From Escherichia coli O157:H7 (lineage in GTDB: Bacteria; Pseudomonadota; Gammaproteobacteria; Enterobacterales; Enterobacteriaceae): a stretch of 64,000 nucleotides of DNA. The position numbers were made by a program. How positions within the stretch are numbered: the first letter of the stretch is position 1; every line of letters begins with the position of its first letter. The stretch lies in the NCBI RefSeq assembly GCF_013167455.1, contig NZ_CP038328.1. One strand, written 5' to 3'. Below, in pieces: positions 54,001 through 57,000 of this stretch.

Positions 54001-57000
54001 GACAACATTGATACGTCAACCCCCATGGGGCGCTTCTTTTTTCACATAATGGGTGCGCTGGCAGAAATGGAGCGTGAATTAATTGTCGAACGGACACGGG
54101 CTGGTCTTGCAGCTGCCCGTGAAAGGGGACGAACCGGCGGCAGACCCCGTCGTCTCACGCAGGAACAATACGAGCAGGTCGGGCGTTTACTGGCCGGGGG
54201 TGTCAGTCGAAGACAGGTGGCACTTATTTTTGATATCGGCCTTTCAACCCTTTATCGTTATTATCCTGCGAGCGTTTCGGAAAAATAAGACGCTCCCTTT
54301 GTTGGGCCTTTACTGAATTAACGCAAAATGGCGTTTATCGGTCTGTGGATATGATAATTCTGTTTATTCAGGAACAGGATGAATATTATGACGTCCAAAT
54401 GGGTTCAACTATCATCAATGCCCGGAAACTTTACCGTTAAAGTTTCCGGTGGTACAGCGGCATTTCTTGAGGCTCCCTTTCCTCCTGCTGAAACGAAAGG
54501 AGGAATGACATTTGCTGACTGTCTCATCAGTTTTAATACACAGGATTGCCTGTGGGTAAGGCCAGTATCCGGTGATCCGAACGTGGAAATTACCGGAGCG
54601 GGTATTGGTGCTGTCATTCCGTTAAGTGCTGATGTTGCCGGTACTACTGAACCGTCAGACTGGGATAATGCAGAAACACATACCCGTCCGGCAGGAAATG
54701 AAACGGCTTCCAGCTCCCCTTCCTGGTATTACGTGGTGGTTCTTGCTGGTCAGTCAAACGGTATGGCTTACGGTGAAGGTCTGCCACTGCCGGAGACATA
54801 TGACCGCCCCGAACCGCGTATTATGCAGTTAGCCCGTCGCAGTACAGTCACGCCGGGAGGTAAAGCCTGTCAGTATAACGACATCATTCTGGCCGACCAC
54901 TGTCTGCATGATGTGCAGGATATGAGTGGAAAAAATCACCCGAAAGCGGATGTGGCTAAAGGGCAATATGGCACCGTGGGTCAGGGGCTTCACATTGCCA
55001 AAAAACTGCTGCCGTTTATTCCGGCAGATGCGGGGATTCTGCTGGTTCCCTGCTGCCGTGGTGGTTCTGCATTCACGGCGGGTGCTGACGGCACGTACAG
55101 TGACAGCACGGGTGCTTCAGAGGACTCAGCCCGCTGGGGTGTGGATAAGCCGCTGTATAAGGACTTAATCAGCCGGACAAAAGCGGCACTGGCGAAGAAC
55201 CCGAAAAACCGCCTGCTTGCTGTGGTGTGGATGCAGGGCGAGTTTGATATTGATGCGAAGCCGACGGAGCATTCTGCGCTGTTTCTGGCGATGGTGGAAA
55301 AATTCCGCGCAGACCTGGCTGAACAGGCGGAACAGTGTACCGGTGGCAGTGCTGCTGGCGTTCCGTGGATTTGTGGTGATACCACGTATTTCTGGAAACA
55401 GAAAAACGAACAGGCATACCAGGCAATCTATGACGGCTACAAAAATAAAACAGATAAAAACATTCATTTCGTCCCATTAATGACAGATGAAAATGGCGCG
55501 AATGTACCCACCAACAATCCGGCAGAAGACCCGGATATTGAATCCATTGGTTATTACGGCTCAACGTGGCGTAACAGTGCCGCCACCTGGACATCTACGG
55601 ACCGGGCCAGCCATTTCAGTTCATGGGCACGTCGTGGGATTATTTCCGACCGTCTGGCCACGGCAGTTCTGACTCATGCGGGGCGAACCACAGTAAAAGC
55701 CGATGTTCCATCTTCTGAAACTGAAGCACCAGTGCCGTCACCTTCAGAAACTGAAGCAGTAACCACAACACTGCTGTCTTACCGTGTCAGTGAGTCAGAA
55801 GGAAATCTGAAAGCCCAGGGCTGGGAGCCGGCTGGCGGTAAAGCTGAAATTATCAGTGATGCAGGAGGCACAGGTGGTAAGGCAATGAAACTGACCAAGG
55901 AAACAGGTAAATCATCCTGGTATCTGGATCATGATGCCGGTACTGGTGCTGAACTGCTGAAAAATGGTGGTTTAATCAGTTGTCGTTTTAAAGTACCGGG
56001 CGACCTGGTGGCAAACCAGTATGTCATGGCGCTTTACTGGCCGGTTTCCTCTCTGCCGCAGGGTGTCACCCTGACAGGGGATGCAGGGAATAATCTGCTG
56101 GCATCGTTCTACATCCAGACAGACGCAAAAGACCTGAATGTGATGTACCACAATGCAAAAGTGGCAACAAATAACCAGAAACTGGGAACCTTTGGTGCAT
56201 TTGATAATGAATGGCATACGCTGGCCTTCCGTTTTGCAGGAAATAACAGCCTTCAGGTTATTCCGGTTATTGATGGTCAGGATGGTGCCGCGTTTACCCT
56301 GACGCAGTCACCAGTAGGAACTTTCCCGGTGGACAAACTCCGCGTAACGGATATCACAAAAAATGCAACTTACCCGGTGCTGATTGACAGCATTGTGGTG
56401 GAAGTGAAAAAAGCGGTAACAGAATAAAAAAATCCCGCCGGTCATGATATGGCTGGCGGGAGCTACCTAACCCATAAAGGAAAATAAAAATACTCCCGAA
56501 GGAGTGGTTATCAGTCGCTTCGATGTTTTTACCCGATAACGAATTATGTAGTCAATATCAAAGGTAAGGTTATATGACATTCGTTCATACAATGCTGCTT
56601 TATTTCTGCGCAGTGGTCAGTGCGTTATATCTGGTGAGCGGCGGTTATAAGGTCATCAGAAATTATATTCGCCGTAAAATTGATGATGCGGCAGCTGAAA
56701 AACTCAGTAAAACAGCACAGGCACCGTCATCCCCAAACGACCCGACCCCGCTCTGATAACGGGGCAATATACCTGCAAAAGGAGAATATTCATGCCAGAG
56801 ATTAAAGGCACGGTTACTGAAGAGCTTGTCAAACAGGCACTTTATTCTGAAGAAGTGAACCGCGTGCTGAAGGCGCAGGTTCGCAAGGATTTTGAGGCAC
56901 AAATCGACGCATATGTTGATGAAGTGCTGGCCCGAATGGTTGGCCATTCTCCGGCTGAAAACAGCACGGAGAATGAGCCTCAAGCCGTAGAGCAACCAGA

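Follow-up and report, generated by a model that had tools for sequence, protein, structure and literature searches.

What does a Mu-like prophage of Escherichia coli O157:H7 carry between its DNA invertase gene, gin, and its com gene? We addressed this question in a 64,000-nucleotide (nt) stretch of contig NZ_CP038328.1 (assembly GCF_013167455.1), called the window below. A preliminary description had proposed that the slot holds a cargo gene, a 682-amino-acid (aa) open reading frame (ORF) coding for a three-part sialate O-acetylesterase like the NanS-p enzymes of lambdoid prophages. The ORF is present exactly as described (Table 1), and gin and com flank it. Comparison of its domains with those of known enzymes marks the protein as a NanS-p variant and not as an ordinary member of the family. 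It has the catalytic and lectin-like domains, lacks the N-terminal domain DUF1737, and occurs on another carrier phage and at another locus. The one unusual feature of the gene is that DUF1737 is replaced by an unrelated beta-barrel inherited with the Mu-like phage.

A hidden Markov model search against Pfam, which had been suggested as a check, returned SASA (aa 119-316, E=2e-11) and DUF6645 (aa 527-645, E=8e-70). A sequence search of solved structures matched aa 108-431 to E. coli NanS (3PT5, E=6e-118) and aa 462-677 to the C-terminal domain of NanS-p (6YP6, E=3e-112), with no overlap between the two matches. From aa ~103 onward, the protein is 79-81% identical to the NanS-p enzymes of lambdoid Shiga toxin (Stx) phages. 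These matches uphold the assignment to NanS-p-like sialate O-acetylesterases, and the proposed three-part architecture is found as an N-terminal region (aa 1-~116), an SASA/SGNH domain and, after a linker, a C-terminal DUF6645 domain. The predicted GQSNG block-I motif is located at aa 124-128. Ser126 sits in its GQSN portion, and His412 sits in an R-x-S-H block. Gln125, Ser126, the QGE motif and His412 are invariant in 32 sequences (30 full-length Mu-type and 2 lambdoid). The preliminary description had proposed to reject the assignment if a Ser-His-Asp triad were missing. That test does not suit this family, since the structural literature on E. coli NanS identifies Ser19 and His301 as catalytic, assigns the oxyanion hole to Gln18 and a glycine, and notes that the catalytic Asp is lacking.

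Four aromatic residues in the C-terminal domain (Y548, Y553, Y578 and F649) correspond to Y510, Y515, Y540 and F611 of the phi24B enzyme, which have been proposed as its carbohydrate site. Three of them are identical in at least 29 of the 32 sequences, and the fourth is absent from 3. Intact esterase ORFs of 679-693 aa are retained in both lineages of the N-terminal domain (N-domain) described below. For the catalytic and C-terminal domains, the ratio of nonsynonymous to synonymous substitution rates (dN/dS) is 0.08-0.24 in the comparisons that allowed an estimate of dS.

We compared the protein to known NanS and NanS-p enzymes. Lambdoid NanS-p proteins (z1466/L0105 of 933W, gp84 or vb_24B_21 of phi24B, and gp44 of phage 1717) have the same SASA/SGNH and lectin domains, with the same catalytic and sugar-site residues. 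They are also prophage-borne and lack a signal peptide, and inspection of the 682-aa sequence found no hydrophobic signal-peptide-like stretch. The window gene also differs from them. The lambdoid enzymes begin with DUF1737, about 55 aa long, whereas the window protein begins with an unrelated all-beta barrel of ~75 aa and has a longer linker. The lambdoid gene lies 3' of stx and 5' of the holin gene, whereas the window gene lies in the gin-com slot of a transposable Mu-like phage. Chromosomal NanS (YjhS, 3PT5) has a homologous SGNH type II domain with the Ser/His pair, the Gln oxyanion residue and no catalytic Asp. However, it is a single-domain protein of about 330 aa that has neither an N-module nor a lectin domain and is not phage-encoded.

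The functional assignment is already in databases. NCBI names the exact 679-aa form of the protein, which uses a start codon discussed below, 'sialate O-acetylesterase' and 'DUF6645 domain-containing protein', and its 90%-identity cluster has 1046 members. The preliminary description was right, yet it mostly rediscovered annotated biology. NCBIfam gave no match for the esterase protein or its small neighbours. A large search with the catalytic domain recovered, for the most part, partial proteins of E. coli; it offered no survey of other N-terminal architectures.

DUF1737 had been suggested for the N-terminus. We found no Pfam match to it (PF08410), and aa 1-102 show no similarity to lambdoid NanS-p. 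Structure prediction, another suggested check, gave an unusable model for the whole protein when run without an alignment (predicted local distance difference test, pLDDT, of 33). AlphaFold2 (AF2) folded the N-domain confidently (aa ~6-82, pLDDT 85-91) as an all-beta barrel; DUF1737, in contrast, is described as one helix and three strands. A scan of IMG/VR with patterns built on an alignment of the N-domain recovered 34 loci, which form two lineages, one of 96-100% and one of about 60% identity. The few homologues of the domain that we found (in these 34 viral contigs, in E. coli and Salmonella loci, and in one Shigella database entry) are each fused to the esterase and located 3' of gin in a Mu-like prophage. 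The N-domain is under purifying selection: dN/dS is 0.16-0.17 within a lineage, and between lineages the proportion of nonsynonymous differences (pN) is 0.25 against a saturated synonymous proportion (pS) of 0.78.

Comparisons of predicted folds gave weak matches to the N-domain. They include dozens of stand-alone proteins of 75-83 aa in AFDB50, from Salmonella, Citrobacter, Morganella, Pantoea and Shewanella MuSo (UniProt Q8EDQ7, A0A2U3ERC9, A0A2S4RY96 and others), and many phage proteins of ~90 aa. Among the stand-alone proteins of ~80 aa, one is named 'Mu phage uncharacterized protein' and another 'Phage tail protein'. There is also a weak match of aa 56-106 to a 1445-aa repeat protein (P0008). 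A search of all ORFs of the window prophage and the retrieved loci for an N-domain paralogue recovered only the gene itself and its fragments. The 81-aa structural protein ECs_4978 of the Mu-like prophage Sp18 was considered as a relative and proved unrelated by profile comparison. Two small ORFs between gin and the esterase gene in Salmonella were also considered; they code for a helix-turn-helix (HTH)-like protein and a membrane peptide instead.

We measured mosaicism by sliding DNA identity along several pairs of loci. Loci L005-L008 match the window at 96-100% identity in gin, the N-domain, DUF826 and com/mom, and identity falls to 40-76% from about 54728 (aa ~116) to about 56800. The proteins of these loci are 68% identical to the window protein in the SASA domain and 38-48% identical in the lectin domain. 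The left breakpoint coincides with the onset of lambdoid NanS-p similarity. P0016, an allele of the DUF1737 type, is essentially identical (~100%) to the window protein from aa 279 on. These breakpoints, together with P0016, indicate that the esterase-lectin body has been exchanged among lambdoid, P2-like and Mu-like prophages. The identity of gin (100, 81 and 67%) runs parallel to that of the N-domain (100, 58 and 28%). The N-domain thus stays with the Mu backbone while the body recombines freely with DUF1737-type alleles. The P0016 gene was observed in a contig of GCA_052609765.1 (L043, 7001-8660), where it codes for a DUF1737-SASA-DUF6645 protein and lies in a P2-like prophage directly after lysozyme/LysC.

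The carrier was correctly recognized as a Mu-like prophage. It spans about 19772 to 57851 of the window, and a Mu-type repressor, transposase A/B, head, contractile tail, G segment and gin are all found. PHROG matches cover the repressor, transposase A (E=1e-209), transposition protein B, terminase, portal, major head (39516-40463), sheath and tape measure proteins. Tail-fibre genes occur in both orientations (a fibre gene and an opposite fibre/assembly set) and are followed by gin and com. Phages Mu, D108 and SfMu have the same genome plan (G segment, gin, com, mom). The statement that Mu itself has no such cargo gene is accurate: only 94 nt separate gin from com in Mu, and SfMu, with a 1.5-kb gin-mom region, also lacks the cassette. 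The esterase had been portrayed as the cargo of the slot. It is indeed there, but the ~3.36-kb gap also carries DUF1378, DUF826 and a frameshifted reverse ORF, which together with the esterase gene, the first of the four, form a cassette of ~3.4 kb. PADLOC gave no match in the neighbourhood of the esterase gene and no sign of a defence system.

The small genes of the cassette relate it to lambdoid phages. The gene order in a lambdoid Stx2a phage is stx2AB, nanS-p, a 59-aa ORF, an 81-aa ORF and holin, and a published survey describes the same arrangement of nanS-p and small ORFs in lambdoid phages. The small ORFs of the Stx2a phage are homologous to the DUF1378 (53%, E=6e-25) and DUF826 (45%, E=2e-11) genes of the window. 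Thus, the Mu slot holds the lambdoid 'downstream of stx' three-gene block with another N-module on its first gene. Several GATC sites lie just 5' of com (57575-57605). In phage Mu, GATC sites are found in the Dam/OxyR-controlled regulatory region of mom. The cluster in the window resembles this control region, and the cassette was therefore inserted upstream of it.

The same gene is present in Sp18, a Mu-like prophage of O157:H7 Sakai that has been known since the Sakai genome was published. The Sp18 gene, ECs_4993, is annotated only as 'hypothetical protein'. Its product is 99% identical (670/679) to the window protein, and the gene has the same position and cassette. The two prophages differ in site and completeness: Sp18, in sorM, retains com, mom and both ends, whereas the window copy, in ycjO, lacks the right end and most of mom. 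Published work found Sp18 to be intact, not inducible by mitomycin, and spontaneously active, with its DNA packaged efficiently.

A survey of Mu-like prophages for genes in the gin-com slot had also been suggested, and we carried it out. The gene coding for the N-domain and esterase occupies the slot at the 34 IMG/VR loci. Every locus with enough flanking sequence has the order fibre/G segment, gin, N-domain-SASA-lectin gene, DUF1378, DUF826, (reverse ORF), com and mom, and the slot and gene order are the same in chromosomal examples, including Sp18. A Salmonella member with a 28% identical N-domain lies 3' of gin in a more divergent Mu-like prophage, and the N-domain gene adjoins gin on a noisy metagenomic contig too. 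In Salmonella enterica (L003, GCA_037428405.1, 9426-9910), gin and the esterase gene are separated by two extra small genes, one for a 58-aa membrane peptide and one for an 87-aa HTH-like protein, so the content of the slot differs between Mu-like lineages.

Among 5426 complete E. coli genomes, the N-domain lineage of the window occurs in 204 (~4%), with up to 4 copies each, and the second lineage occurs in 28. The whole gin-to-com block is present in 167 genomes; among the matches listed, these are largely E. coli that produce Shiga toxin (STEC), of serotypes O157, O26, O103, O111 and O145. The N-domain patterns had no match in a collection of one genome per bacterial species, and the element is therefore not fixed in any species representative. 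With a counterpart in Sp18 (ECs_4993) and a presence in about 4% of complete E. coli genomes, the gene is neither rare nor unannotated.

The window copy of the prophage has lost its right end. Similarity to an intact relative (L001) ends at 57851, after the first 50 nt of mom, and no right prophage end follows; mom is complete in relatives. The mom remnant is followed by codons 1-9 of ycjO (57852-57879, minus strand) and then by the stop codon of ycjN. From 57852 on, the DNA is 100% identical to O157-lineage chromosomes (start of ycjO, ycjN and ycjM). The left prophage end (~19772) carries repeated TTGATACCGA-like sites and interrupts ycjO near codon 77. The junctions at the two ends indicate that a deletion removed the right end, all but the start of mom and ~200 bp of ycjO. 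None of the complete E. coli genomes in our collection spans the mom-ycjO junction. The deletion left the esterase cassette untouched and should immobilise this copy of the prophage.

What does the gene do for its carrier? From its homology, residue conservation, synteny, mosaic structure and selection, we infer that it likely codes for an active sialate 9-O-acetylesterase with a glycan-binding module, which is released by lysis and benefits lysogens growing on O-acetylated mucin sialic acids. In this reading, the SGNH type II domain would cut O-acetyl groups off sialic acids of the 5-N-acetyl-9-O-acetylneuraminic acid (Neu5,9Ac2) type. Ser126 would act as the nucleophile and His412 as the base, Gln125 and a glycine would form the oxyanion hole, and no catalytic Asp would take part, as in solved NanS. 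The jelly-roll lectin domain would anchor the enzyme on glycans. Because there is no signal peptide, we propose that the enzyme would most likely be freed when induced prophage-carrying cells lyse. The surviving lysogen population could then feed on O-acetylated mucin sialic acids, a role that has been shown for lambdoid NanS-p. According to a review, prophage NanS-p enzymes of enterohaemorrhagic E. coli (EHEC) are active on Neu5,9Ac2 and mucin and support growth.

Several points weigh against this proposal. Our literature searches, whose coverage left out some subscription papers, found no paper on ECs_4993 and no description of the gene or its distinct N-domain. Neither a promoter scan of the region, in which the number of sites was not above chance, nor a cross-lineage alignment of the gin-esterase intergenic region, which revealed a conserved block, identified a convincing sigma-70 or otherwise recognisable promoter 5' of the esterase gene. 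Inspection of the intergenic region showed no terminator between gin and the esterase gene. The gene may be transcribed by constitutive, low-level read-through from gin, or its transcription may be late and activator-dependent. Since Sp18 is not mitomycin-inducible, the gene is probably not co-induced with Stx, unlike lambdoid nanS-p, and this makes release by lysis less certain. The right-end truncation means that the window copy cannot make transposing phage. Finally, the phi24B homologue is a processed component of the virion, and by analogy the picture of a free enzyme working for the lysogen may be incomplete.

The phi24B findings point to a different use of the protein. A 2026 preprint reports that gp84, the NanS-p of phi24B, is an abundant virion protein, that its DUF1737 (aa 2-57) binds hexon centres, and that its body is proteolytically released at SSP-containing linkers. 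Exactly this capsid anchor is swapped in the window protein. The domain in its place is folded, is under purifying selection and follows the Mu backbone while the body changes. Linker 1 contains an SSSP motif, and the fold relatives of the barrel are the stand-alone ~80-aa proteins, including the two with the Mu and tail names, and the many ~90-aa phage proteins. The window enzyme might likewise be displayed on the virion, with the barrel as the Mu-type counterpart of DUF1737 that docks the body on the capsid or tail, and mucus or glycans of the cell surface would be bound or deacetylated by the phage particle. However, the fold matches are weak, and no partner or paralogue of the N-domain was detected in the window prophage, the retrieved loci or the comparison with ECs_4978 of Sp18. 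In addition, a DUF1737 allele occurs in a P2-like phage, and homologous recombination by itself accounts for the N-domain tracking the backbone. We consider virion display, the main rival, unlikely overall, and it can coexist with a free enzyme released by lysis. A generalization to all NanS-p enzymes is speculative to a similar degree: they might be modular virion decorations in which one esterase-lectin body is combined with swappable N-anchors fitted to the particle of the carrier phage. DUF1737 would then serve on lambdoid and P2-type capsids and the beta-barrel on Mu-type particles, and the barrel would derive from ~80-aa stand-alone phage proteins. If this were true, Sp18-type Mu-like phages would carry a mucus-binding, sialic-acid-deacetylating coat.

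Two further explanations seem much less probable. Work cited in a review attributes deacetylation of O-antigen or Vi capsule to virion-borne SGNH acetyl-esterases of other phages, and both the review, for NanS-p, and the preliminary description raised the possibility of such targets. The window enzyme could by this logic target glycans of the bacterial surface, such as O-acetylated O-antigen, capsule or K1-type polysialic acid, instead of host sialic acids, in phage adsorption or release, or to modify the receptor of the lysogen. Its catalytic domain is far closer to sialate-specific NanS and Neu5,9Ac2-active NanS-p than to anything else, though, and the protein has neither a tailspike-like architecture nor a signal peptide for action on the lysogen's own surface; we consider this use quite improbable. 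Still harder to sustain is the view that the gene has no current function and is carried along as inert baggage by a prophage in decay. The loss of the right end together with most of mom and ~200 bp of ycjO, the frameshift in the neighbouring reverse ORF, and the truncated or rearranged copies found elsewhere would fit such decay. However, the window and nearly all complete loci of both lineages retain an intact ORF, the catalytic residues are invariant, all three domains are under purifying selection, and Sp18, with its efficiently packaged DNA, was judged intact. The lysis-released esterase is the reading that we prefer.

NanS-p enzymes are thought to help EHEC and STEC feed on O-acetylated mucin sialic acids, and strains have several copies. 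One of these copies (ECs_4993 in Sakai) is carried by a transposable Mu-like phage that the SOS response does not induce, and its expression and release probably follow rules other than those for Stx-linked copies. The swap of the anchor module makes it testable on a second phage type whether NanS-p is a nutrition factor of the lysogen or equipment of the virion. Sharp mosaicism at domain boundaries and the near-identical P2-like allele also document that one cargo gene is actively shuffled among three unrelated temperate phage types in one species.

Table 1. Features of the gin-com slot and its surroundings, in window coordinates
Feature	Position	Strand	Basis or remarks
gin-type DNA invertase, left slot border	53728..54288	+	PHROG_125 'DNA invertase' E=6e-95; recombinase in relatives' annotation
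gin-esterase intergenic region	54289..54387	+	Shine-Dalgarno AGGA 54370-54373 / AGG 54376-54378
NanS-p-type sialate O-acetylesterase gene	54379..56427	+	682-aa ORF; likely start 54388 (679 aa); orthologue of Sp18 ECs_4993
N-terminal all-beta barrel (aa ~6-82)	54394..54624	+	AF2 pLDDT 85-91; specific to Mu-like prophage versions
Disordered linker 1 (aa 83-116; SSSP 111-114)	54625..54726	+	pLDDT <50; recombination breakpoint with other alleles at ~54728
SGNH type II / SASA catalytic domain	54727..55683	+	Gln125-Ser126 codons 54751-54756; QGE 286-288; His412 55612-55614
Ser/Thr/Pro/Glu-rich linker 2 (aa 436-462)	55684..55764	+	composition; dN/dS 0.55-1.06
C-terminal lectin-like jelly-roll domain (DUF6645)	55765..56418	+	6YP6 and DUF6645 matches; Y548, Y553, Y578, F649
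13-bp hairpin just 3' of esterase stop codon	56433..56461	+	-23.2 kcal/mol, z = -4.35
DUF1378-family small membrane protein, cassette gene 2	56574..56756	+	PHROG_494 E=4e-34; name from the Prokaryotic Genome Annotation Pipeline (PGAP)
DUF826 protein, cassette gene 3	56792..57037	+	PHROG_311 E=3e-30
Reverse ORF, two pieces by frameshift	57076..57532	-	PHROG_26524 (unknown function)
com, right slot border	57647..57847	+	PHROG 'gpCom'; annotated in relatives
mom, first ~50 nt remaining	57801..57851	+	comparison with intact L001

The conserved start codon of the esterase gene is probably ATG 54388 (MTSKW..., 679 aa) rather than ATG 54379. We favour the downstream codon because the upstream ATG reads CTG in close relatives, PGAP picks 54388, and the protein collection searched catalogues only the 679-aa form and not the 682-aa form. 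The ORF begins 90 nt 3' of gin. The preliminary description had credited the gene with its own Shine-Dalgarno sequence and terminator. The first part stands, as either candidate ATG has an AGGA/AGG Shine-Dalgarno sequence 5-9 nt upstream. The second holds only in part: the hairpin 3' of the stop codon is strong, but the plus strand lacks a U-tract there and an A7 run lies upstream, so it is not a canonical intrinsic terminator in the sense direction. A scan of the sense strand for intrinsic terminators scored none, this hairpin included. A TGAATT-N2-CGCAAAA block in the gin-esterase gap (54310-54330) is kept across lineages that are otherwise ~55-65% identical there, and it is also found at the aligned positions in loci L012, L018, L033 and L036. 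This block may be a regulatory site.

The reverse ORF is frameshifted in the closest relative, L001, too, and its Sakai counterpart, ECs_4996, has no pseudogene flag. Its C-terminal piece has a zinc-ribbon-like CxxC...CxxC pattern, and the ORF had no NCBIfam or PADLOC match. Beyond the prophage, ycjN is split into two ORFs (204 and 209 aa; 57900-59192, minus strand), as is ycjM (434 and 145 aa; 59206-60947, minus strand), which suggests that their reading frames are interrupted. Since the DNA is 100% identical to several O157-lineage chromosomes, the splits are a feature of the lineage and not specific to the window.

Some copies of the cassette elsewhere are truncated or rearranged. In E. coli 2014C-3011 (L040, NZ_CP027591.1, 4578578-4587919), a Mu-type esterase gene is split around host dusA and pspG. 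Its 5' part remains with gin, and its 3' part is inverted together with DUF1378, DUF826, com and mom. The arrangement suggests that the chromosome was rearranged between two copies of a Mu-like prophage. The cassette is also present in two records of ~93-kb Stx-converting prophages (LC727881.1, 36879-41006; LC727895.1, 40100-44227), carried by a whole 'inserted Bacteriophage Mu-like phage'. In these two cases, the Mu-like phage transposed into the Stx prophage.

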